Source: Promethearchaeota archaeon (GTDB lineage: Archaea > Asgardarchaeota > Lokiarchaeia > Sigyniarchaeales > SOKP01). From it: a stretch of 64,000 nt of DNA. A program made the position numbers and the translations under genes. Below are positions 15,739 through 43,904 of the stretch, piece by piece (within the stretch, counting starts at the first letter, position 1; each line of letters starts with the position of its first letter). Under the pieces are notes generated by a model, which searched no databases, was not told the DNA's origin, and saw nothing but the letters and a program-made list of their open reading frames with translations. The stretch lies in contig JAUVXW010000017.1 of NCBI GenBank assembly GCA_030603385.1, forward strand, positions 8,448 through 72,447. The letters are read 5' to 3'.

Positions 15739-15765
15739 CGAGAAGTAGTAAAACTTCTCGTTTTT
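15739..15765. terminator. Hairpin plus T-run between convergent genes
   Basis: CGAGAAGT (15739-15746), a 6-nt loop, ACTTCTCG (15753-15760), then TTTTT (15761-15765). Lies between the OsmC-2 stop and the radA stop. Confidence 0.35.
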
Positions 15766-16801
15766 AATCTTTTATACCTTCTTCAGTAATAGTAAAAACG
15801 GTATCGCTCTCAGGTATATTTGGAGCATCAACAACCTTTGCAATTCGTTGTTCTCCTTTTCCTTTTCTTAGAAACACGCGAATTGTTGCCCCATGAGCTA
15901 CAATATGGCCGCCTGTATGTATTAAGGGATTTCCATAAAAAACATCTGGTCTAGCAGATACTTGATTAGTAAAAAGTACAGCTAACTCATCATATACCTC
16001 AGATAATCTTAAAAGATCATGTAGATGAGTATTTATAATCTGTTGACGTGATGCTAAAGTCCCTCTTCCTACATATTCACTTCGAAAGTGTCCTATCAAG
16101 GAATCTACAATGATTAATTTGATGTTTTTTTCTTCGATTATCCTAGAAGCTTCTTTAATCAATAAGATTTGATGATCACTATTATAGGCTCTTCCAATAG
16201 TGATGTTCTTTAAAATTTCATTATAGTCTAAATCTAAAGCAGCTGACATCTGTATTATTCTTTCGGGTCTGAAAGTGCCTTCAGTATCCACGTATAAGGG
16301 GTTTCCTTCAAGACCTCCTCTTTCATATTGTAGTTGTACATTTACACAAAGTTGATGAGCTAATTGAGTTTTTCCAGTGCGATATTCACCAAAAAGCTCA
16401 GTTAAAGCTCCTGGTTCAATACCCCCTCCTAATAGTTCATCAAAATTTTGACTTCCTGTGGTTAGTCTATTTAATAATTTACGTTTCTCCCAAATGAGAT
16501 CAGCTGATTTAAATCCCATTTTCTCTACATCTTGAGCTGTTTTAACTAATTTTTCAGCTGTTTTTATGCCTAAACCCACTTCATCAGTTAATTTATTTAA
16601 GGGATACATCGCAAGTGTTCTAACTGATAAGATCCCTGCATCTTTTAACTTTTTTAGAGTTGCATCTCCAACTCCAGGCAGATCATTTAAACTATAAGAA
16701 GATTTTGATAAAGATTCTTTATCCTGACTGTCCTTATCTATACTACCTTTTTTTTTTGCCATTATTGAATATAAAGAATTATTACTATTTGAATTCCTCA
16801 T
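15764..16801 (-). CDS. radA: DNA repair and recombination protein RadA
   Basis: N-terminal HhH domain (LPGVGDATLKKLKDAGILSVRTLA). Walker A GEYRTGKTQLAHQL, Walker B LIIVDSL, and the L2-loop region. The probable start is the internal MAKKKG. Confidence 0.95.
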   Translation of the reverse strand: MRNSNSNNSLYSIMAKKKGSIDKDSQDKESLSKSSYSLNDLPGVGDATLKKLKDAGILSVRTLAMYPLNKLTDEVGLGIKTAEKLVKTAQDVEKMGFKSADLIWEKRKLLNRLTTGSQNFDELLGGGIEPGALTELFGEYRTGKTQLAHQLCVNVQLQYERGGLEGNPLYVDTEGTFRPERIIQMSAALDLDYNEILKNITIGRAYNSDHQILLIKEASRIIEEKNIKLIIVDSLIGHFRSEYVGRGTLASRQQIINTHLHDLLRLSEVYDELAVLFTNQVSARPDVFYGNPLIHTGGHIVAHGATIRVFLRKGKGEQRIAKVVDAPNIPESDTVFTITEEGIKD

Positions 16802-33125: not shown

Positions 33126-34157
33126 TTGCTACATAATATCTTTTTATTTAAGGGAAAGAAAGATCTGGAGGATCTTAATATTTATTGTTACCCTAAAGAA
33201 ATTATTAATGTAAACAATAAACTACTTGTTAATAATATCATAAAAGGGCATGATCAAGGAAAAATAAATGATAGAAAAGAATTACTTTCAAGCTGTAATA
33301 ATTTAAATCATTATAAAATTGATAAACCAGTTGCCCTATATATTAATGATTACAATATCTACACTTCTTGTATTGATGAGGATATTATCATAGGTTTAAT
33401 CTTTGAAGATGATGATAACCCTTACGATTATAAAGATATTTTTGAAGAATTATTGTGTGAATTGCTGAACAACGGCAATGGATATTCGTTCGAGGAAGAG
33501 ATGGAAATAGATAATTTATTAATCTCAATGTTCATTGATCTTCGAAGATATGGAGATGAAGTTGTAGAAAAAACTCCAGAAATAGAATTTTATTACCAGA
33601 GAGAGGCATTTTTTAAGGTATTCCTATTTGGAATTGATGAAGTTGGAAAAACAAGTTTTGTACGAAGGTTAAAAACTGGAGAATTCAATGAAAATTATTT
33701 CACTCCAACAAGAAAGTTTAATATAGAATACATTCAAGAAGAAGAACGAGGATTACTGGCTGTATGGGACATGCCAGGGCAAGAACTTTTCAGATCAAAA
33801 TGGCTTAAAGGGTTACAAGATTCTAATATTATTGTATATATGATAGATATCGCAAATCAGAGAAGATTTAAAGAATCAAAGAAAGAATTATGGAAAATCT
33901 TGAATAATAATGAATTGAATGGCATTCCATTATTGATCTTGGGAAATAAAAGTGATATAATCAAATATTCAGATGAAAATTATGAGACCCAACTTCAGAA
34001 TTTAAAGGAAGAAGTTATTGATTATTTTGACTTTGAAAAAGTGGAGAATAGGAATTGGAAATTCATTTTTACCTCAGTAAAAACCAATCACAACATTGAG
34101 AAAACAGTTCAAACGATCTTCGATTTGATATCAAATTATGAGCATATCCAAAAATAA
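33126..34157 (+). CDS. Arf-family-like small GTPase with a longin-like N-terminal domain
   Basis: C-terminal G domain: G1 LFGIDEVGKTSF, G3 WDMPGQELFRSKW (Arf-type W..GQ...R..W), G4 LGNKSD, G5 TSVKT. The first ~165 aa alternate short beta and helix segments (NIFLFKG / NIYCYP / ... / IIIGLIFED / YKDIFEELLCELL). TTG start directly follows an in-frame stop. Confidence 0.8.
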   Translation: MLHNIFLFKGKKDLEDLNIYCYPKEIINVNNKLLVNNIIKGHDQGKINDRKELLSSCNNLNHYKIDKPVALYINDYNIYTSCIDEDIIIGLIFEDDDNPYDYKDIFEELLCELLNNGNGYSFEEEMEIDNLLISMFIDLRRYGDEVVEKTPEIEFYYQREAFFKVFLFGIDEVGKTSFVRRLKTGEFNENYFTPTRKFNIEYIQEEERGLLAVWDMPGQELFRSKWLKGLQDSNIIVYMIDIANQRRFKESKKELWKILNNNELNGIPLLILGNKSDIIKYSDENYETQLQNLKEEVIDYFDFEKVENRNWKFIFTSVKTNHNIEKTVQTIFDLISNYEHIQK

Positions 34158-34299: not shown

Positions 34300-34893
34300 A
34301 TGTCGAAAAGACTGAAAAAAGCGCTCCAAATAATGATAGATGAAAAAGAGGGGCACTTGTTTTTTGGAGATAAAAAGAAGGATTTAAAATTATTAATGCT
34401 ACGACCTATTGATTTAATTGAATTCTCTGAATTTGCTGGCACAAATGCTGATGATATACTTATCTGGGTTGGTAAGTCATTAGGAAGAACTTTTATGGAA
34501 AAGTTTTTCTACAGTAAAGACTGGGGGAGTGAGACTATGCCAACTAGAAAAGGTGTATTTCTAGGATCACTTGAAGCCTTAGAACTTATGGGATATGGAC
34601 AAATAATAGGCAAATTTAGAAAAGATCATATCTTAATCGAAGTGGAAGATTCGATTGCATGTGAGGAAACTGACAACATTATGGCCAAAAATCTGTGCCT
34701 ATTATACCTAGGAATCTTCAGTGGATTATTTGATATCTTACAAATGGATGTAGATGGAGAAGAAATCGGATGCGCCTTATTAGAAGAAGAAAAATGTACA
34801 TTTAAATTTGATTTTATTGGTGGAGAACTGGAAACTGGTTTAATTGATGAAGAATCTGAAGAAAATGTTTCTGAGTTTTTATCTACTCTTTAA
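34300..34893 (+). CDS. V4R-domain protein (4-vinyl reductase / TRAPP Bet3-related fold)
   Basis: Collinear with remembered V4R proteins: LKLLMLRPIDLIEF, ILIWVGKSLGRTFMEKF, LELMGYGQIIGKF..ILIEVEDSIACE, NLCLLYLGIFSGLFDIL, and GCALLEEEKCTFKFDF (the conserved Cys pair). Confidence 0.6.
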   Translation: MSKRLKKALQIMIDEKEGHLFFGDKKKDLKLLMLRPIDLIEFSEFAGTNADDILIWVGKSLGRTFMEKFFYSKDWGSETMPTRKGVFLGSLEALELMGYGQIIGKFRKDHILIEVEDSIACEETDNIMAKNLCLLYLGIFSGLFDILQMDVDGEEIGCALLEEEKCTFKFDFIGGELETGLIDEESEENVSEFLSTL

Positions 34894-36007: not shown

Positions 36008-38356
36008 ATGAGTAGAAAAGCTGCAAAAATTAAAATTGATGAATATAAAGGGCCACTCGGAACTATAAAAGGATTTGAACTAACAACCGGTAAAATATCA
36101 TATGGTGATGAAACTGAATGGGAACCACTTGGACCGACAGCCTCACCTCATATACCTACACTGCGATCATGGTTTTTTAAGATGATGGAAAGGTACAAAC
36201 CGTTTTATATGCCAATCTGTGATATGTGCTGTTTATGCACTTACGGTAAATGTAACCTTTCTAAAGGCCGAACAGGTGCGTGTGGTATTAATATAGAAGG
36301 TGCATGCGCAAAAATAGTGGAGATTGCCTGTTGTATAGGTGCAGCGTGCCACTCGGCTCATGGTGATCATCTACTACATTGGCTAAAACAGAAATATGGA
36401 AATGTGCCAATTAATTTTGGAAACAATATCGCTGTAGAGATGCCACATACTCGATTAGTAGTTGGGATGAAACCTGAGACGCTTGAGGATTTAGAGACTG
36501 CGATGGAGTGGGTACAAAGCACTATCACGCATCTCTTAGCCGCGGGTCACACGGGTCAAGAGTCAAATTATTTAGATTATGAGGCTAAAAGCTTTTTAGC
36601 AGGACTAGCAGATTCTGTAGGCATGGAAATTTCCGACGCAGTGCAGATTGCGGCGTATGGGTTTCCACTGGGTGATCCAGATGTCCCAATCGTAGAATTA
36701 GGAATGGGCACTATGGATAGTGAAAATAAAGCGACAATTTTAATGATAGGTCATAATGTTGCCCCTGGTGTAGAACTTGTTGATTACATGAGAGAAAATA
36801 ACTTGGATAGTAAAGTAGATGTAGGTGCAATTTGTTGTACTGCATTAGATTTAACTAGATACTATTCTGGTGCTAAAATCGTTGGTTCTCTCTCCCGTCA
36901 GATGTTTTACATTCGCTCTGGTCTAGCCGATGTCGTAATGGTTGATGAACAATGCGTTAATCTTCGCAGTCACGAGCAAGCAGCATTAGTAAATGCTCCG
37001 TTTATTGCGACAAATGAAAAAAATATGGGCGGATTACCTGATCGAACTAATGATCCTGCTGAAGAAATAATAGATGATTTAGTTAGTGGCAAAATGGATG
37101 GAGTATTAATCCTAGATCCAGTAAAGGCAGGAAAAGTTGCTGTTGAAACGGCTATTAAAGTAAGACCTATAAGAAAGTCTAAAAGTGCCATCCCTGATGA
37201 GCAAGGCTGTATTGATATGGCAATGAATTGTAATGGTTGTGGCAATTGTCAGAGAAATTGTCCAAACGATTTACCTATTGTTGAAGGTGTTGTAATGGTA
37301 AAAGATGGTGATTTCTCATTATTAGAAGAAGTATATGATTCTTGTCTGGATTGTGGTAGGTGTGAAGCCGAATGTATGAAAGAAGTATCTCCTTTAACTT
37401 TAATCATGTATGCGGGAAGGGAAAAAATTCGAAATGAAAAATATAATTGTAGATCTGGTCGCGGACCAATTATGGACACAGAAATCCGTAATGTCGGTGC
37501 TCCTATTGTGTTAGGAGAAATACCCGGTATTATCGCAATTATAGGATGTGCTAATTATGCTAAAGATATCCAAGAATTATACTTGTTGGCAGAAGAATTC
37601 TTAATTAGAAATTATATAGTCTGTGTTAGTGGGTGTGCTGCTATGGATATTGGATTAGTCAAGGATGAAGAGGGTAAAACACTTTACGATCGATTCCCTG
37701 GAGATTTTGACCGTGGAGGCTTAGTAAACGTTGGCTCATGTGTTTCGAATCCACACATAACTGGAGCAGCACTAAAAGTCGCTAATATCTTCGCGAGACG
37801 CCCTCTAAGGGGTAATTTTGAAGAGATTGCCGATTATGTTCTTAATCGTGTAGGTGCAGTCGGTGTTGCGTGGGGTGCGATGTCCCAGAAAGCCGCGAGT
37901 ATCGCGAGTATGGCTAATGGAGTAGGAGTTCCTGCAGTATGCGGGCCACATTCAGCAGAATATCGACGTATGTATATTGGGCGTTCTGATGATGAAGACA
38001 CTTGGAAGGTTTTTAATGCAAGAGATGGAACAGAAGGTCATCTAGTAGGACCCGGACCAGAACACTTATTAACAACTGCAGAAAGTATTGAACAAGCGAT
38101 CTGCCTTGTTGCTAAATTATGCCTGAGGCCAGCAGATAACTCTAAAGGGAGAATGATTAAACTTTCTCACTGGATTGATTTAGAGAGAAAATACAAAGGA
38201 GTTCAATTTCCTAATGACTTAGAGAGATTTATACGTGTTGAAGCAGATATACCAATTGCTATAAAAGATGAAGTAAAGGCATTTCTCGAAGAGAGAGGTT
38301 GGGAACCAAAAGAAATCATCGATCCAACCTTATTAAAAAGGCTCTGCCGAACATAA
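36008..38356 (+). CDS. cdhA: Acetyl-CoA decarbonylase/synthase complex subunit alpha (CODH catalytic subunit)
   Basis: 782 aa. N-terminal Cys cluster CDMCCLCTYGKC, an inserted 2x[4Fe-4S] ferredoxin module (CNGCGNCQRNCP; CLDCGRCEAEC), and C-cluster-region blocks (GCANYA, SGCAAMD, VGSCVSNPH). Confidence 0.9.
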   Translation: MSRKAAKIKIDEYKGPLGTIKGFELTTGKISYGDETEWEPLGPTASPHIPTLRSWFFKMMERYKPFYMPICDMCCLCTYGKCNLSKGRTGACGINIEGACAKIVEIACCIGAACHSAHGDHLLHWLKQKYGNVPINFGNNIAVEMPHTRLVVGMKPETLEDLETAMEWVQSTITHLLAAGHTGQESNYLDYEAKSFLAGLADSVGMEISDAVQIAAYGFPLGDPDVPIVELGMGTMDSENKATILMIGHNVAPGVELVDYMRENNLDSKVDVGAICCTALDLTRYYSGAKIVGSLSRQMFYIRSGLADVVMVDEQCVNLRSHEQAALVNAPFIATNEKNMGGLPDRTNDPAEEIIDDLVSGKMDGVLILDPVKAGKVAVETAIKVRPIRKSKSAIPDEQGCIDMAMNCNGCGNCQRNCPNDLPIVEGVVMVKDGDFSLLEEVYDSCLDCGRCEAECMKEVSPLTLIMYAGREKIRNEKYNCRSGRGPIMDTEIRNVGAPIVLGEIPGIIAIIGCANYAKDIQELYLLAEEFLIRNYIVCVSGCAAMDIGLVKDEEGKTLYDRFPGDFDRGGLVNVGSCVSNPHITGAALKVANIFARRPLRGNFEEIADYVLNRVGAVGVAWGAMSQKAASIASMANGVGVPAVCGPHSAEYRRMYIGRSDDEDTWKVFNARDGTEGHLVGPGPEHLLTTAESIEQAICLVAKLCLRPADNSKGRMIKLSHWIDLERKYKGVQFPNDLERFIRVEADIPIAIKDEVKAFLEERGWEPKEIIDPTLLKRLCRT

Positions 38357-38541: not shown

Positions 38542-38760
38542 TTGGATAAAAATGATAAGGATTTATTAAAATTGTCGAAATATTGTAAACACTGGGCAGA
38601 TCACAACAACTCCCATAAAGAGAGTTACTTAAAATGGCTAAATATTGCCAAGGAAAAAGGATTAGCTTCTATTGTTGAAAACTTAAATAAAGCAATTGAA
38701 ATGTTAGATAAATGTAATGAGTATTTACTTTCTGCTTATCAAGAGTTAGAAAGAGACTAG
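38542..38760 (+). CDS. Small helical protein with a Cys/His-rich N-terminal helix, function unknown
   Basis: 72 aa, TTG start, CKHWADHNNSHKE motif. Located downstream of cdhA. Coding status is unproven. Confidence 0.35.
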   Translation: MDKNDKDLLKLSKYCKHWADHNNSHKESYLKWLNIAKEKGLASIVENLNKAIEMLDKCNEYLLSAYQELERD

Positions 38761-38792: not shown

Positions 38793-40001
38793 TTATAGGA
38801 ATAGATTAATTAATGGTAATAATTGTTCTTTAAAATACCCTATTTTACCTTCCAATTTTTCAGGTTCTTCAGAAAGAGCCCAAAGATATACAGGAATTTG
38901 TAGATCTGAGTATTCAAATAGTTTTTCTCCTCGGATTGTAAACCCATTAAGAGGCAAATCAAGTCTTATTGATTTCTCACGAATCAAACCAATAGAGTTA
39001 TAGAAGTTGGAAAGGGTCTGTAGAAGTAGCGCGGTATTATTTATTAACATCTCATCTGTATCTGTACTGGTATAACTACCAAAAATTAACCCATCCATAG
39101 ATACTAAACTTGAGGCTTTTGCTTCTACTTGAGAGCAGAAATCTTCAAGGATATTTTCGATTATTTCAGAAGTATCAGAGACTTTCTTCAACGCAATACT
39201 AAACATTTGCATTATGGTTTCTCTTTGAAATACAGTTGTATCACAGAAATCAACTGAAAACTGCTCAAACTCATCTGAGACTTTAATAAATTTATTTTTT
39301 ATTGTAGTTACATTTTGTTGCCATTGAAGTGTTTTTCGAATATCCTGATCACTTTTGCTTATAACAATGAGAAGAGCAGGTTTTTCTTCTAAATCTACTA
39401 AAACCTTCAGAACCTCTCTGAAATAGTTTGCAGATTCCGGAAATCTATCAGGATCCTGACTGTCAATAACATAAAGTATGATGTCTGCTTCTGTGAAAAA
39501 TAATTCTGGTCTATTAAAGTAAAGCTTCTCTCTGTATTGGACTTGCCCGCCAAGGTCCCATGAAACTATCGGGTAACCGAAAAAGTCTAGCTTTTCTCTT
39601 TTTACACCCCTTGTTGGAAGTAGAGATTTAATTATTGAAAATTTATCTTGAACTACTGCTAAAATAGAAGTTTTACCGCCGTTGTCGAGTCCGATCATAA
39701 GTAATTTCTTATGTCTCCTTAATTGTTCTTGAACATTTTTCTTGATAACTTGAGTTATTTTAACCCATTTTTGTAACATCGATGGTAATACATCTTTTAT
39801 TTCAGGAAGATTAGCAACAGATATGTTTGCTAAATCTCCAATAGATTTTATACCATTTGCAAGTAATTGATCAGAGCTAACTTTATCGACACCTATTAAT
39901 GTTTCTGGTTTAAATCTCAAAATTTCTTCAAGTTCACTGATCAAAACATTACGTTTAAAGAAATCCTTTAATACAACTTTTTTACTGGTTTGATCTGACA
40001 T
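38793..40001 (-). CDS. Multidomain Arf-like small GTPase: HhH-like N-domain, G domain, roadblock/LC7-like C-domain
   Basis: G1 LMIGLDNGGKTSIL (Arf GLDxAGKT), G3 WDLGGQVQYREKLY, G4 VISKSDQ. The N-terminus LIGVDKVSSDQLLANGIKSIGDLANISVANL resembles the RadA HhH domain. The C-terminal ~140 aa (ILEDFCSQVEAKASSLVSMDGLIFGSY...) has a roadblock-like alpha/beta pattern. Confidence 0.8.
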   Translation of the reverse strand: MSDQTSKKVVLKDFFKRNVLISELEEILRFKPETLIGVDKVSSDQLLANGIKSIGDLANISVANLPEIKDVLPSMLQKWVKITQVIKKNVQEQLRRHKKLLMIGLDNGGKTSILAVVQDKFSIIKSLLPTRGVKREKLDFFGYPIVSWDLGGQVQYREKLYFNRPELFFTEADIILYVIDSQDPDRFPESANYFREVLKVLVDLEEKPALLIVISKSDQDIRKTLQWQQNVTTIKNKFIKVSDEFEQFSVDFCDTTVFQRETIMQMFSIALKKVSDTSEIIENILEDFCSQVEAKASSLVSMDGLIFGSYTSTDTDEMLINNTALLLQTLSNFYNSIGLIREKSIRLDLPLNGFTIRGEKLFEYSDLQIPVYLWALSEEPEKLEGKIGYFKEQLLPLINLFL

Positions 40002-40175
40002 TCTACATCAGAATATTTTACATTTTTCTTTATACTTTATACTTAATAAGATATTATTAAATTTTAGTAATTTTACTAATTATTTAATAATTAATTACTA
40101 TTTAAAAAATAGATTAATTGGAAAAGCACTGTAGTTGAATTCTTATAAATATGTCCTAAAGATAGTAATAATAAA

Positions 40176-41381
40176 ATGACTGAGCAAAGAATACCTGAAA
40201 ATATTGTAGTGTGCTTGGATACTTCAAGATCGATGTATAAGAAGGATTTTCCTCCTAATCGATTAACTTGTTGCACCAATGCCATTAAAATACTCATAAG
40301 TAAAAGGTTTGATTTAGATAGTTTAAGTACCTTTGCTATAATCAAATTTTCTGACAAAGCAGAAAAAATAATTGATTTTACCACCTCAACATATATCAAT
40401 AACCTTAATAAGGCGTTAGATTCTCTTAAATGTGGAGGATATTCTGCATTAGGTGATGGATTAGCTTTAGGAATCAAAACTGTTATTGCAGAATTGCGGA
40501 AAATTGGTGCTAAACCTCCAAGAATCCTCTTAATCTCTGACGGAAAAATTATGAATACTGCTGTTGATCCTTTAAAAATGGCACGATTGGCACAAGGATT
40601 AAATATTAAAATTGATACATTTTTAGTAGGAGAGATTGGCCAAGTAAATATGTTAAAAAGATTAAGTGATATTACAAAAGGCAGGTATTTTTATAATAGT
40701 GATTCTGAGAGTTTAATAAGATCGGCTCAAGAAATTGCTGATGATAATTATAAAAGGTATGGATCTAACAAGGAGGTAATAAGTGAAAATCCTGCTTTTC
40801 TGAGAAAAATTGCGGCAGATTTATTGAGAGTTCAAGATTTAACTAAAGATCAAAAACAACGGGCAAAACAAATAAGAGGAGAGGTTGATTTTAAGAAATG
40901 TTCAATCTGCTTTTCTGATAAAAATCCTTATACTAAGGGATCCTTTTATATTACAGGTCGTTATTGTCCTAATTGTACTACTCCATTCCATATACATTGT
41001 TTAGCGGGTTGGGCAGATTCTCAAAAAGATCATATAGTGAAAAGATCAGGAACAGCACGATGCCCACATTGTTTTTATTTATTAAGAATTCCAACTGAGG
41101 TTACTCAAATACAAAAATTACGCATTCTTTCTCGTGGCAATAAGGAAGAACCCGCAAAAAGACCTGAAATCCTCCCAGCAAAATATATCGAAGATGTTGC
41201 CTTACTTGGAGAGGATGCTCTGTTTAGTGCATGTCCCGTATGTCATTTAATATTTGAGAAAGGACAGCGGGCAGTTCAATGTGGTAATCTTGAATGTAAT
41301 GCACTTTATCATGAGGATTGCTTTAAAAAACTAAAAGATGGTCATTGTAGAAATTGTGATGTTAAACTCCATCTATATTAA
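40176..41381 (+). CDS. vWA-domain protein with two C-terminal C4HC3 (RING-variant/PHD-like) zinc fingers
   Basis: MIDAS motif VVCLDTSRSMY (DxSxS). Finger 1: CSIC-x18-CPNC-x4-H-x2-C-x20-CPHC, with an FHxxCLxxW RING-H2-like core. Finger 2: CPVC-x12-C-x4-C-x4-H-x2-C-x8-CRNC. Confidence 0.75.
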   Translation: MTEQRIPENIVVCLDTSRSMYKKDFPPNRLTCCTNAIKILISKRFDLDSLSTFAIIKFSDKAEKIIDFTTSTYINNLNKALDSLKCGGYSALGDGLALGIKTVIAELRKIGAKPPRILLISDGKIMNTAVDPLKMARLAQGLNIKIDTFLVGEIGQVNMLKRLSDITKGRYFYNSDSESLIRSAQEIADDNYKRYGSNKEVISENPAFLRKIAADLLRVQDLTKDQKQRAKQIRGEVDFKKCSICFSDKNPYTKGSFYITGRYCPNCTTPFHIHCLAGWADSQKDHIVKRSGTARCPHCFYLLRIPTEVTQIQKLRILSRGNKEEPAKRPEILPAKYIEDVALLGEDALFSACPVCHLIFEKGQRAVQCGNLECNALYHEDCFKKLKDGHCRNCDVKLHLY

Positions 41382-41388
41382 TTAAAAT

Positions 41389-41682
41389 TTGTATTCGATC
41401 AATATGAATGATATGAATAATAATGTACGGAATCAGATAGGTGTTGCTGCCTATTATCTTGCTCAAAGGAATTATTCTTATGATGTAGTCTGTTGGATGC
41501 TTGCCGAGAGACAATTGTTTGCTCAGAAAGATCCGAGATATGCAGAAAAGCAAAGAATTAGAGAAAAAGCGGCAGAAATCTTTTTTTCAAAACAACCCTA
41601 TGATATTATCTGTTGGTATATCGCGGAACTTGATATTTTATTAAAGATTAAAAAATCGAGAAAACCTAAAGTTTCCTTTTAG
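41389..41682 (+). CDS. Small protein with an internal duplication, function unknown
   Basis: Two related segments: IGVAAYYLAQRNYSYDVVCWMLAERQLF and IREKAAEIFFSKQPYDIICWYIAELDIL. TTG start; an ATG lies a few codons in. Confidence 0.4.
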   Translation: MYSINMNDMNNNVRNQIGVAAYYLAQRNYSYDVVCWMLAERQLFAQKDPRYAEKQRIREKAAEIFFSKQPYDIICWYIAELDILLKIKKSRKPKVSF

Positions 41683-41735: not shown

Positions 41736-42614
41736 ATGAGCGAACTTAAATTTTATAATTATGGAGATATTAAAGTAGGAAGAGGAGATTTTGAACTACC
41801 TCCCCTATTAATAGGAACTCTTTTTTATCAAGGTCAGTCTTTTGTTAATAGAAAAAATAGTGAAATATTCGATGAGAGGAAGGCACTTAAGCGAATAAAC
41901 ACACAAGTAGCCTTATCAAAACAATATAAAATTCCTAATCTAATTGAAATTTCAGCAACTACACCCAAAGCTATGGTCAAATATTTAGAATTTTATTTAG
42001 GTAATTTTGATCCTCCTTTTGTTTTAGGAGGGAATTTTGAATCTAGAGTTGCTGGGATCGAATACTTATCAGAACATGGGATTAAACCTGATCAATACAT
42101 ATATAATACTATTTCAAATCTCAAAAATAAACAAGAATTAGAGATTCTGCAAAAATATAAAATTCAATCTACTGTTGTTTTGATACTTGGCTCAGAAAAT
42201 ATGACATCTACTCAGAGATATGAATACATAACTGGAAAAAACCAACCTAATAATGTAAGCATATTAGAGGGATTAAAACGTTTAGGAATTGAAAAAGTTT
42301 GGATTGATGGCGGTGTAATTAATTTAGAAAGCTTAACTCATGTATTAGAAACGCAGCAATTAGTTAGTACAGCATTACAGCTTCCGGTAGGCACAGCTCC
42401 GAATCTTTTTCTTTTTCAGTATTCCTCACCACGTTTGAATATTAAATTCCATACACGTTATAGACGGGCTAGTATTATGTTTATTGCCACATGGTACTCT
42501 AATTTTATTTTTTATGGGGCAATTGAAGATGCAGAAGAATCATTCTCTTCAGCATATCAATCACTAGAATTTAAAAAAATTGTTAGATGTCGAAATATGA
42601 AATTTTTTACTTAA
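41736..42614 (+). CDS. MtrH-like (tetrahydromethanopterin S-methyltransferase subunit H family) methyltransferase
   Basis: The N-terminus F..YGDIKVGRGDFELPPLLIGTLFYQG...FDERKA parallels the MtrH pattern F..e.qv.eigGvkiGGqpGe.ptvLigsiFy.g...FDk..A. The size (292 aa) fits. Confidence 0.65.
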   Translation: MSELKFYNYGDIKVGRGDFELPPLLIGTLFYQGQSFVNRKNSEIFDERKALKRINTQVALSKQYKIPNLIEISATTPKAMVKYLEFYLGNFDPPFVLGGNFESRVAGIEYLSEHGIKPDQYIYNTISNLKNKQELEILQKYKIQSTVVLILGSENMTSTQRYEYITGKNQPNNVSILEGLKRLGIEKVWIDGGVINLESLTHVLETQQLVSTALQLPVGTAPNLFLFQYSSPRLNIKFHTRYRRASIMFIATWYSNFIFYGAIEDAEESFSSAYQSLEFKKIVRCRNMKFFT

Positions 42615-42725: not shown

Positions 42726-43904
42726 TTGGATATTAAAATTCTTTTATACTTTATTTGGAGAGAAATTATGATCGGAGAAGATAGAGAAGGTAAAGAAATT
42801 GAAGCGATACAATTAATAGATATGGCTGAAAACTTAGTTGATAAAAATGAAGGAGAAGAAGCTATTAATTTTTATGAAAAAGCGGCTCAAATTTATATAG
42901 ATCTCGGGAGTTACATAAAAATAGATGAACTATATGTAAGAATTACCCAAATAATCGCACAATTTAAAAGTAATATTCAAGCTACCTATAGATTGAAATC
43001 TATTATTAGAAAGACTGAAGAATTAAAACTATATGAAGTTTCAGCAAAACTATTAATCCAATTGGGAAATATATCCTATAAAATGCGAGATTGGGAGACT
43101 GCTGGAGAATGTTGGAGGAAAACCTCAGAATATTTATATGAGGATGATCCTGAAGAATTCAACAGTTTAAGCTCAATCTTCTTATTAAAAGCTGGTCAAG
43201 CTTTTGAACGTTCAAGGATAAAAAAGAACGTGGGTAAAAATTTAATCTTAAAAGCAGTAATGAAAATAAATAAATTTGATGAACTATACGAACAGGAGGA
43301 AAAAGAAGCATTAAATCTCTTATCAAGAAAAGATTTTGAATCTTCTGCCACAAAATTCAACGACATAGCTAATTATTTTAAAAAAGCATTGGAAAATTTA
43401 GGAGATTTTATAGATGAGGAAAAATCGAAGGATACAATGCTTAACGCAAAAGCTCGAGTTATCCATTTTATTGCTGAATATCAAACTATTGCTGCATTAT
43501 GTTTAAGGGCATCTGAAAACCGTGATTATAATGAAAAAATTAAAGAACTTGGAACGGATTCTCTTCAACGGTTCAAAGAATCTATTTCTCTTCTTAAATC
43601 TTATCTACATCCTCAAGTTTCGGATTTTGATCATGAAATAATATTAAGAATAACATTTGATACAATGTTTATAGCAATTATCCAAGGAATGTTAGGAGCT
43701 TATCAACTAAATCCAACTGAATTTTTATTGGAAAACATTGAAGAGAACAAAAAATTAGCTAAAGAACTAAAGAATTCCCCTTATTTTAAAATTACGAAAC
43801 GAATTGAAAAAGTGGGTATTATAGAAGTTTTTGATGACCTCTTAAAGCTCAATTTAGGGCATTTTGAAAATATAAAAAACACATTAATTACGTATTTTAA
43901 ATAA
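42726..43904 (+). CDS. All-helical TPR-like repeat protein, function unknown
   Basis: Repeated helix-hairpin segments of the A..Y.KAA..Y type (EEAINFYEKAAQIYIDLGSY; WETAGECWRKTSEYLYE; FLLKAGQAFERS). The likely start is the ATG at 42768. Confidence 0.45.
   Translation: MDIKILLYFIWREIMIGEDREGKEIEAIQLIDMAENLVDKNEGEEAINFYEKAAQIYIDLGSYIKIDELYVRITQIIAQFKSNIQATYRLKSIIRKTEELKLYEVSAKLLIQLGNISYKMRDWETAGECWRKTSEYLYEDDPEEFNSLSSIFLLKAGQAFERSRIKKNVGKNLILKAVMKINKFDELYEQEEKEALNLLSRKDFESSATKFNDIANYFKKALENLGDFIDEEKSKDTMLNAKARVIHFIAEYQTIAALCLRASENRDYNEKIKELGTDSLQRFKESISLLKSYLHPQVSDFDHEIILRITFDTMFIAIIQGMLGAYQLNPTEFLLENIEENKKLAKELKNSPYFKITKRIEKVGIIEVFDDLLKLNLGHFENIKNTLITYFK

Follow-up and report, generated by a model that had tools for sequence, protein, structure and literature searches.

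The 64-kb stretch of DNA analysed here, termed the window, comes from a contig of a Lokiarchaeia (Asgard) genome and has ~30% GC. It contains two genes in head-to-head arrangement, one for a small GTPase of the Rag/Arf type and the other for a protein in which a von Willebrand factor A (vWA) domain precedes two zinc fingers. An earlier note on this DNA had described the genes as a divergent pair 174 nt apart; the open reading frame (ORF) coordinates confirm this gap, and both ORFs lie where that note had placed them. The nearest homologs of both proteins are found in metagenome-assembled genomes (MAGs) of Promethearchaeota/Lokiarchaeia. The class of the GTPase and the individual domains of both proteins are known. 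The family of the second protein, here called vWA-RING-PHD, and its pairing with Rag-like GTPases are undescribed in the literature searched (which did not include Burroughs et al. 2011 on prokaryotic RINGs), and no Asgard paper in that literature mentions a vWA+RING family. The features of the locus are as follows.

38793..40001, minus strand: Rag/Arf-like small GTPase gene, 402 aa (ORF; Pfam and PDB profile matches)
39717..39944, minus strand: N-terminal helical domain of the GTPase, possibly degenerate (HhH)2/SAM-like, residues ~20-95 (subthreshold matches)
39186..39713, minus strand: G domain, residues ~97-272 (motifs; profile matches to Arf, Arl, Sar1 and Gtr1 structures)
38796..39176, minus strand: C-terminal domain, presumed roadblock-type dimerisation domain, residues ~276-402 (profile overlap; 'R' code in strain MK-D1)
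40002..40175, no strand: divergent intergenic region, 174 nt, AT-rich, with both presumed promoters
40176..41381, plus strand: vWA-RING-PHD/C1-like zinc-finger protein gene, 401 aa (ORF; Pfam VWA and Ssl1)
40197..40745, plus strand: vWA domain, residues 8-190, with the metal ion-dependent adhesion site (MIDAS) D15-x-S17-x-S19, S90, D122 (Pfam, Foldseek, PDB profile)
40893..41081, plus strand: zinc finger 1, C4HC3, RING-H2-like, residues 240-302
41226..41363, plus strand: zinc finger 2, C4HC3, PHD/C1/Prok-RING_1-like, binuclear, residues 351-396
42726..43904, plus strand: TPR/alpha-SNAP-like protein gene, 392 aa, tentative third component (Pfam TPR_2 3.7e-5, SNAP 0.0027)

The spacer between the two genes is ~90% A+T. 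Its length falls between 149 and 228 nt in 68 of 71 orthologous pairs, and 41 aligned spacers have the conserved A/T blocks TTATTAAAT and AT.TAAAAAAT, which could be two TATA boxes. Running over the start of the vWA gene on the other strand is a spurious ORF of 128 aa (40091..40477).

The GTPase and its Asgard relatives

The earlier note had called the GTPase Arf-like in its motifs and Rag-like in its architecture, and both halves of this description hold. The best Pfam match is Gtr1_RagA (1.9e-21; 77 bits, cut-off 22), in which residues 99-316 align with positions 1-218 of the 232-position profile, and Arf scores nearly the same (2.1e-20, 73.4 bits), likewise above its curated cut-off. The G domain carries Arf-type G1 (GLDNGGKT, residues 104-111) and G3 (WDLGGQ, 148-153, including the catalytic Gln153), together with the switch-I residue T130 and a G4 of SKSD (215-218). 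More than 550 homologs were found, of which the 120 listed are 82-100% identical and, by source name, mostly from Promethearchaeota/Lokiarchaeota MAGs. Among these 120, G104, L105, D106, G109, K110, T130, all of WDLGGQ and G4 are invariant and T111 is kept in at least 90%; only N107 and G108 of G1 vary. Because G1, switch I, G3 with its Gln153, and G4 are conserved, the protein looks like a functioning switch, with a canonical and apparently hydrolysis-competent G domain. The short N-terminal amphipathic helix of Arf proteins, which binds membranes and is often myristoylated, is absent, a conserved helical domain of ~95 aa standing there instead, and the N-terminus (MSDQTSKK) has no Gly2.

A search of the PDB with the family profile was led by 8yl2 (5e-40, query residues 96-327), followed by 8zla/9m28 (2e-29), both titled 'GTP-binding protein'; every Arf, Arl, Sar and Gtr1 entry scored far lower. 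Foldseek metadata give 8yl2 as 'homo-tetrameric RagA-like small GTPase from Asgard Lokiarchaeota (LokiRagO)', which is thus the closest solved relative, at just ~26% identity. The AlphaFold2 (AF2) model of the GTPase, made from the 120 homologs (all at least 82% identical), has a mean per-residue confidence (pLDDT) of 49.9, so it cannot test the helix-hairpin-helix (HhH) or roadblock folds proposed for the two ends of the protein; a Foldseek run on this poor model was usable just for the identity of its top match, again LokiRagO.

The earlier note had also taken the three-domain architecture to be undescribed. It has been published. Tran et al. 2024 (PMC10933270) give, in their supplement, a code based on AF2 architecture to each small GTPase of Ca. 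Prometheoarchaeum syntrophicum MK-D1, and WP_147663357.1 and WP_147662031.1 are 'XGR' (unknown domain, GTPase, roadblock) and WP_147662243.1 is 'GRX'. From the sequence blocks printed there, 8yl2 corresponds to WP_147663357.1 and 8zla to WP_147662243.1. A distant ortholog of the window GTPase (locus L084, see below) closely matches two printed blocks of WP_147662031.1, allowing for noise from optical character recognition, which makes this MK-D1 protein the apparent ortholog of the window GTPase. The window GTPase is therefore a new member of a known Asgard RagA-like class, one paralog of which has been solved as LokiRagO, and the identity of the X domain is the part still undescribed. Tran et al. 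do not mention a vWA-RING pairing for the XGR GTPases, and no paper on PDB 8YL2, 8ZLA or 9M28 or on LokiRagO was found in the literature searched.

LokiRagO and the MK-D1 XGR proteins share with the window GTPase a G domain with Arf-like G1 and G3 that scores with Gtr1_RagA, a C-terminal domain (in the window protein a presumed roadblock) and an extra N-terminal domain, although this X domain is ~40 aa in LokiRagO and ~95 aa in the window GTPase. The eukaryotic Rag/Gtr proteins (RagA-D, Gtr1/2) also have a G domain followed by a roadblock-type domain, as presumed in the window protein. They differ in that the window GTPase has Arf-like G1 and G3, SKSD rather than HKxD at G4 and an added N-terminal domain, and Gtr1 structures match it over the G domain only (residues 96-218). 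The window locus moreover has one such gene rather than a RagA/RagC-type pair, with no Ragulator or TORC1 context. Rag proteins are obligate dimers, formed by two paralogs through the C-terminal roadblock domain (CRD); LokiRagO is a homotetramer by the title of 8yl2.

For the roadblock reading of the C-terminal domain the support is indirect. We presume a roadblock-type domain because the Gtr1_RagA profile reaches residue 316 and the LokiRagO alignment residue 327, both well into this domain, and because the MK-D1 ortholog WP_147662031.1 has its C-terminal domain coded 'R' by AF2 (Tran et al. 2024, PMC10933270). Searches with the domain itself did not add to this. The C-terminal 133 aa alone gave no PDB profile match and no significant Pfam match, Robl_LC7 matches 1 of 26 family members (E 0.05), and hhalign comparisons were not significant either with the CRD of RagA or with the C-terminus of a more remote GTPase (locus L093). 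The hhalign of the whole GTPase alignment with human RagA was reliable for the G domain only, and the AF2 model has pLDDT below 50 in the C-terminal domain.

The N-terminal segment had been likened to the HhH domain of the RadA encoded in the window (15764..16801), and profile support for this is weak, if consistent. BLASTP of the segment against this RadA gave no match, and Pfam HHH_5 scores 17.9 bits against the isolated domain, below its cut-off of 27. In hhalign, residues 35-88 pair with the HhH domain of RadA in the register proposed earlier, though at no better than P 0.0013 (probability 19%). Of 30 orthologs, 17 match HHH_5 below threshold (best E 3e-4), and orthologs also match, again below threshold, the models for the RNA polymerase alpha C-terminal domain (alpha-CTD), HHH_2, IMS_HHH and SAM. 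Against PDB profiles the domain matched BLM HRDC, the acidic-repeat (AR) domains of NusA and RadA 2bke (E 2.8), all with E above 0.01. Four helices are modelled (21-29, 40-48, 54-58 and 73-96; pLDDT 53-78). The glycine hairpins are degenerate: the first reads LIGVD, with one Gly, and the second has none, a pattern that is reversed in the distant orthologs of loci L084-L086, where the domain is kept in altered form. We read the domain as possibly a helical module of (HhH)2/SAM-like type, which would bind protein more probably than DNA.

The vWA-RING-PHD protein

The vWA protein has 361 homologs, and a search of 1.84 billion representatives gave 46 clusters below 1e-30. Pfam VWA (1.4e-13, 52 bits) and Ssl1 (1.4e-11, 45 bits, cut-off 27) both score above their cut-offs, and the MIDAS motif DTSRS that the earlier note had reported is read in the translation at residues 15-19. 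Among Lokiarchaeia orthologs D15, S17, S19 and D122 do not vary, and at least 90% keep S90. AF2 models the vWA domain with a pLDDT of ~90. By Foldseek, this domain alone aligns with p44 at TM-scores of 0.84-0.87 (root-mean-square deviation 2.1-2.3 Å), with Rpn10 at 0.73-0.80 and with BatB at 0.72; for the whole chain, p44/Ssl1 is best (E 3e-16, ~400 aligned columns). PDB profiles agree, with matches to 4rck (1.7e-11), TFIIH p44 (3.4e-10) and Rpn10 (9e-10), and the motif DxSRxM...D..PNRL is common to the window domain and these matches. Sequence and model together place the domain in the intracellular p44/Ssl1-Rpn10-BatA clade.

The protein's C-terminal half consists of two zinc fingers. The earlier note had seen two C4HC3 fingers here, the first RING-H2-like, and the family alignment bears this out. 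Finger 1 has the ligands C242, C245, C264, C267, H272, C275, C296 and C299, spaced in the cross-brace manner (C-x2-C-x18-C-x2-C-x4-H-x2-C-x20-C-x2-C), with FHIHCLAGW at 271-279; those of finger 2 are C353, C356, C369, C374, H379, C382, C391 and C394. Across 29 full-length representatives of 23-68% identity, 15 of the 16 ligands are invariant (8/8 in finger 1, 7/8 in finger 2), as is W279, while C382, I244 and P297 are kept in at least 90%. An Ile after the first Cys, a Trp in the helix and a Pro after the seventh Cys are the classical E2-contact positions of RING E3s (c-Cbl-type interfaces), and finger 1 carries all three as I244, W279 and P297. At the family level zf-RING_2 matches 22 of the 29 members (best E 6.3e-8), and the RING-H2 models zf-ANAPC11 (1.8e-7) and zf-rbx1 also match some of them. 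Finger 1 is RING-H2-like and, judged from its sequence, apparently E2-competent. Finger 2, modelled at pLDDT 77-88, is matched at the family level by C1_1 in 17, PHD in 12 and Prok-RING_1 in 11 of the 29.

Known proteins each resemble parts of this one. In TFIIH p44/Ssl1, too, two zinc-binding modules come after a vWA domain, which belongs to the same clade, and E3 activity has been reported for the Ssl1 RING (PMC3023161). The modules of p44 are however a C4 finger and a C4C4 TFIIH C1-like domain, whereas the window protein has C4HC3 twice and no match to the TFIIH C1-like family (C1_4) among Pfam families at E<=1; its neighbours do not include p34/Tfb4, XPD or p62, and its partner is a GTPase. 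Rpn10 likewise shares the vWA clade but carries ubiquitin-interacting motifs (UIMs), which have no Pfam match in the window protein and are replaced by the two fingers. The small RING finger E3 (srfp) of Caldiarchaeum and Asgard ubiquitin operons is also a prokaryotic RING-type finger, from lineages with E1, E2 and ubiquitin (PMC5654768); unlike it, the window RING lies outside a ubiquitin operon and shares its chain with a vWA domain and another finger.

Conservation and possible function of the pair

The earlier note had proposed a functional link between the two genes, to be doubted if the pairing were absent from relatives. The pairing is present in relatives, including divergent ones. Our scan of GTDB species representatives gave 80 loci (L001-L080; GTPase identity 64-91%), nearly all titled Promethearchaeota/Promethearchaeia or uncultured archaeon, with ~16 under other Asgard phylum names and one under a bacterial name. 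The vWA gene divergently adjoins the GTPase gene in 74/74 of the Lokiarchaeia loci that extend upstream. A scan of metagenome contigs, seeded with P0241 and P0243, gave L083-L086, the closest non-orthologous representatives. In L084, L085 and L086 the vWA protein is 37-41% identical to that of the window and is again paired with a divergent GTPase with a like N-terminal extension (~34% identity for the GTPase in L084; only its N-terminus is on the contig in L085 and L086). The downstream genes are unlike those of the window, namely proteasome alpha, 2-hydroxyacid dehydrogenase and TPR.

More distant vWA subfamilies widen the comparison. A paralogous subfamily of ~393 aa occurs in the same genomes, P0413 lying on one 3.34-Mb contig with the orthologs P0113 and P0211. 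In a lineage of 57% GC (L093) a member of this subfamily forms a divergent pair, across 223 nt, with a 308-aa Gtr1_RagA/Arf GTPase of the G-roadblock type, next to the methionyl-tRNA synthetase (MetRS) gene. Another subfamily (L087) has a longin-GTPase 70 nt downstream, and a third (L090/L091) abuts a Rab-like GTPase and has genes for a 608-aa Gtr1_RagA protein and an Arf-like protein close by. Counting the window and L084-L086 as one lineage, a small GTPase is immediately adjacent in 4 of 7 independent contexts. Since two of the ~46 ORFs of at least 120 aa in the window (~4%) are small GTPases, ~8% would be expected by chance, and the excess (binomial P ~1e-3, our own calculation) favours a real functional association, as the earlier note had supposed.

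The L090/L091 neighbourhood (L090 1295-9076) contains 179-aa Arf/Rab-like and 208-aa Rab-like GTPases, the 608-aa Gtr1_RagA protein, which has a long C-terminal extension, and a 272-aa Pro/Ala-rich low-complexity protein. L084 and L086 bear locus tags of one Promethearchaeia MAG (DRO88_11680 and DRO88_12850), and genes for the GTPase, vWA-RING, proteasome-alpha and TPR proteins are present at both; a single genome would then hold two copies of the complete module, unless sequences of two related organisms were binned together. Several other loci are labelled Thor-, Odin-, Hod- or Hermod-archaeota, although their proteins are 79-90% identical to those of Lokiarchaeia. L061 (DATKTW010000126.1), deposited as 'Candidatus Nanopelagicaceae bacterium', has the 72-aa ORF described below, GTPase, vWA, MtrH and TPR genes at 58-68% identity and no CdhA match, and is almost certainly a mis-binned archaeal contig.

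A proteasome alpha gene adjoins the vWA-RING gene, or lies within ~1.7 kb of it, and has the TPR gene as a neighbour in each of the three divergent loci that are long enough to show it (L083 4468-5193, L084 2252-2971 and L086 3425-4147, each on the minus strand). Given the Rpn10/p44-like vWA domain this linkage is suggestive. The window has neither a proteasome alpha gene nor a radical-SAM gene of the L084 type.

We infer that the GTPase and the vWA-RING protein act together, and the reading we prefer, held tentatively and as a possibility short of a probability, is that the pair is a conserved two-gene module of Lokiarchaeia (Promethearchaeia), a GTPase-coupled E3-like adaptor. The vWA-RING protein would be a cytosolic E3-type adaptor for the Asgard ubiquitin-like conjugation system: its vWA/MIDAS face would bind a ligand or substrate and finger 1 would recruit E2, while the nucleotide state of the GTPase, which would probably form a dimer or oligomer through its roadblock-type domain, would control whether the vWA-RING protein is recruited or active. 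The TPR/alpha-SNAP-like neighbour may be a third partner. Alternatively, the vWA-RING protein might modify the GTPase itself, loosely like RNF152 on Rag GTPases. RNF152 is a RING protein that acts on Rag GTPases, and the RINGs of GATOR2 also tie RING proteins to Rag-type GTPases. The earlier note had left open an E3-like and a coat-like role; the former fits better, because I244, W279 and P297 are conserved and because Asgard archaea encode E1, E2 and RING-E3 components of ubiquitylation (PMC5654768).

Were this so, two eukaryote-like systems, small-GTPase switching and conjugation of the ubiquitin type, would be joined in those archaea that are most closely related to eukaryotes. Asgard genomes encode Rag-, Arf- and Rab-like GTPases by the dozen. 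Their effectors are not named in the literature searched, and for one class of these GTPases the recurrent pairing suggests a candidate effector or regulator that can be tested. The vWA-RING protein would also be an archaeal RING protein of another kind than srfp, which is small and operon-encoded. Biochemistry is feasible, since both proteins are small and soluble-looking and orthologs occur in lineages related to the cultured MK-D1. A bolder version, which we think improbable, takes the vWA-RING-PHD family as an Asgard relative of the vWA clade behind TFIIH p44/Ssl1 and Rpn10 that, with its Rag-like GTPase, would form a GTP-gated ubiquitin-like ligase module, a prokaryotic antecedent of eukaryotic Rag-RING coupling, possibly feeding the proteasome.

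Several observations count against an E3-like module. No ubiquitin, E1 or E2 gene is present among the neighbours scanned (~29-54 kb of the window). In the window protein itself finger 1 scores 22.5 bits with zf-RING_2 (cut-off 27.3) and is mostly modelled at pLDDT below 50 (30-63 per 10-residue block), and the RING scores of finger 2 (Prok-RING_1 7.7e-5, zf-RING-like 5.5e-4) are also below Pfam cut-offs; in the most distant family members the MIDAS motif decays. The whole block CdhA-orf72-GTPase<->vWA-(orf97)-MtrH-TPR-radical SAM is collinear over ~10 kb in L001-L080, so that the 74 Lokiarchaeia loci, taken alone, could reflect inherited synteny. L083, a close relative of the vWA gene, has no GTPase upstream; the ~393-aa subfamily of Lokiarchaeia (L081/L088/L092) lies between M20 peptidase and MetRS genes without a GTPase, and a further subfamily (L082) stands among ABC transporter genes with none nearby. 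The GTPases that are adjacent differ in architecture (XGR, GR, LG and Rab-like), which would also fit a mere enrichment of GTPase genes in such regions.

These points of gene order, with the ~4% of window ORFs that are small GTPases, are what would be expected if the two genes were functionally unrelated, their adjacency being inherited Lokiarchaeia synteny plus chance where small GTPase genes are abundant. We consider this rather unlikely, as the divergent pair survives changed flanks at ~30-40% identity (L084-L086, L093) and the 4 of 7 contexts with an adjacent GTPase exceed the chance rate. A role in which the vWA protein is a non-catalytic scaffold resembling p44 is a serious rival that we hold to be similarly unlikely. 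Its fingers would bind proteins, and with a dimeric roadblock-GTPase and the TPR protein it would form a platform without ubiquitin transfer. The RING of p44 binds the vWA domain of p34, and the RING-H2 of Ste5 binds G-beta. The structural matches of the whole chain, led by p44/Ssl1, and the Ssl1 Pfam score suit such a scaffold, as do the PHD/C1-like rather than RING character of finger 2, the neighbourhood scanned, with its lack of E1, E2 and ubiquitin genes, and the conserved TPR/alpha-SNAP-like neighbour; scaffolds with RING and vWA domains are known in eukaryotes (PMC3023161). What it leaves unexplained is the conservation of the E2-contact positions across the family and the matches of family members to the RING-H2 E3 models of ANAPC11 and Rbx1.

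The remaining proposals were rejected. In a DNA-repair or transcription role, which we judge very unlikely, the HhH-like domain would bind DNA and its partner, p44-like in architecture, would act as p44 does in TFIIH. Beyond that likeness, all its support is the weak HhH signal, that is, the (HhH)2-type profile matches and the RadA and RAD51 matches at ranks 33 and 39 of the Foldseek run on the poor GTPase model. The G-hydrophobic-G hairpins are not both kept in either ortholog group, the related NusA AR and alpha-CTD folds are also protein-binding modules, no XPD-, XPB- or p34-like gene is a neighbour and the TFIIH C1-like finger is not matched. The coat-like option of the earlier note, a proto-COPII module in which the vWA protein would be a Sec23/24-type coat or GTPase-activating subunit recruited by the Sar1/Arf-like GTPase, is extremely improbable in our view. 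It draws on the Arf/Sar-type G1 and G3 and on Sec23/24, Sar1-binding proteins that have both a vWA-like trunk and a zinc finger (PMC3023161). No Sec23/24 family is matched in Pfam at E<=1, however, and none is among the top 50 Foldseek matches, where p44/Ssl1, BatB and Rpn10 appear instead. The vWA domain comes first in the window protein, a reversal of the domain order; the beta-barrel, helical and gelsolin domains are missing from its 401 aa; and the GTPase has its helical domain and roadblock-type tail rather than the amphipathic N-terminal helix. A defence system was rejected as well: PADLOC gave no match for the vWA protein and noise for the GTPase (E ~0.006-0.01), and no MoxR or effector genes, as in vWA-MoxR ternary systems, lie near the pair.

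Neighbouring genes

The TPR/alpha-SNAP-like protein matches alpha-SNAP in a PDB profile search over residues 22-158 (E 0.005). Its gene has a homolog ~0.1-2.6 kb 3′ of the vWA gene, with at most three genes between, in the Lokiarchaeia block and in L083, L084 and L086, and the protein may belong to the module. In the last three loci the TPR protein has ~385 aa (L083 3304-4458, L084 3165-4307, L086 4282-5436), and in L083, where the GTPase is missing, its gene begins just 60 nt downstream of the vWA-RING gene.

The pair is flanked in Lokiarchaeia by a gene that we take, by eye, to encode the alpha subunit of carbon monoxide dehydrogenase/acetyl-CoA synthase (CODH/ACS; CdhA, 782 aa, 36008-38356, plus strand) and one for an MtrH-like methyltransferase (41736-42614, plus strand; Pfam 1e-33). 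These flanks would be Wood-Ljungdahl-type genes, and the divergent loci lack this neighbourhood. A 72-aa ORF (38542-38760, plus strand) separates CdhA from the 3′ end of the GTPase gene. It has no significant Pfam family, just two matches (E 0.011 and 0.088), and is likely to encode a genuine small protein because 77 of the 80 Lokiarchaeia loci have it too, with 48-86% identity. Between the vWA and MtrH-like genes is an ORF of 97 aa (41389-41682, plus strand) that contains a two-fold repeat. In otherwise collinear loci its orientation varies, being on the vWA strand in L001 and on the opposite strand in L010, L011, L013, L016 and others, and it is missing from more distant loci; it is flanked by a weak 19-nt inverted repeat (79% complementary) and nothing stronger.

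The second small GTPase of the window (33126-34157, plus strand; Pfam Arf 4e-30) is encoded ~5 kb upstream of the pair; it is extended at its N-terminus by ~155 aa. Directly after it comes a gene for a V4R-domain protein (34300-34893, plus strand; E 1.6e-5, below the Pfam cut-off). The V4R superfamily includes TRAPPC3/Bet3, and the two genes are possibly another GTPase/trafficking-like pair.

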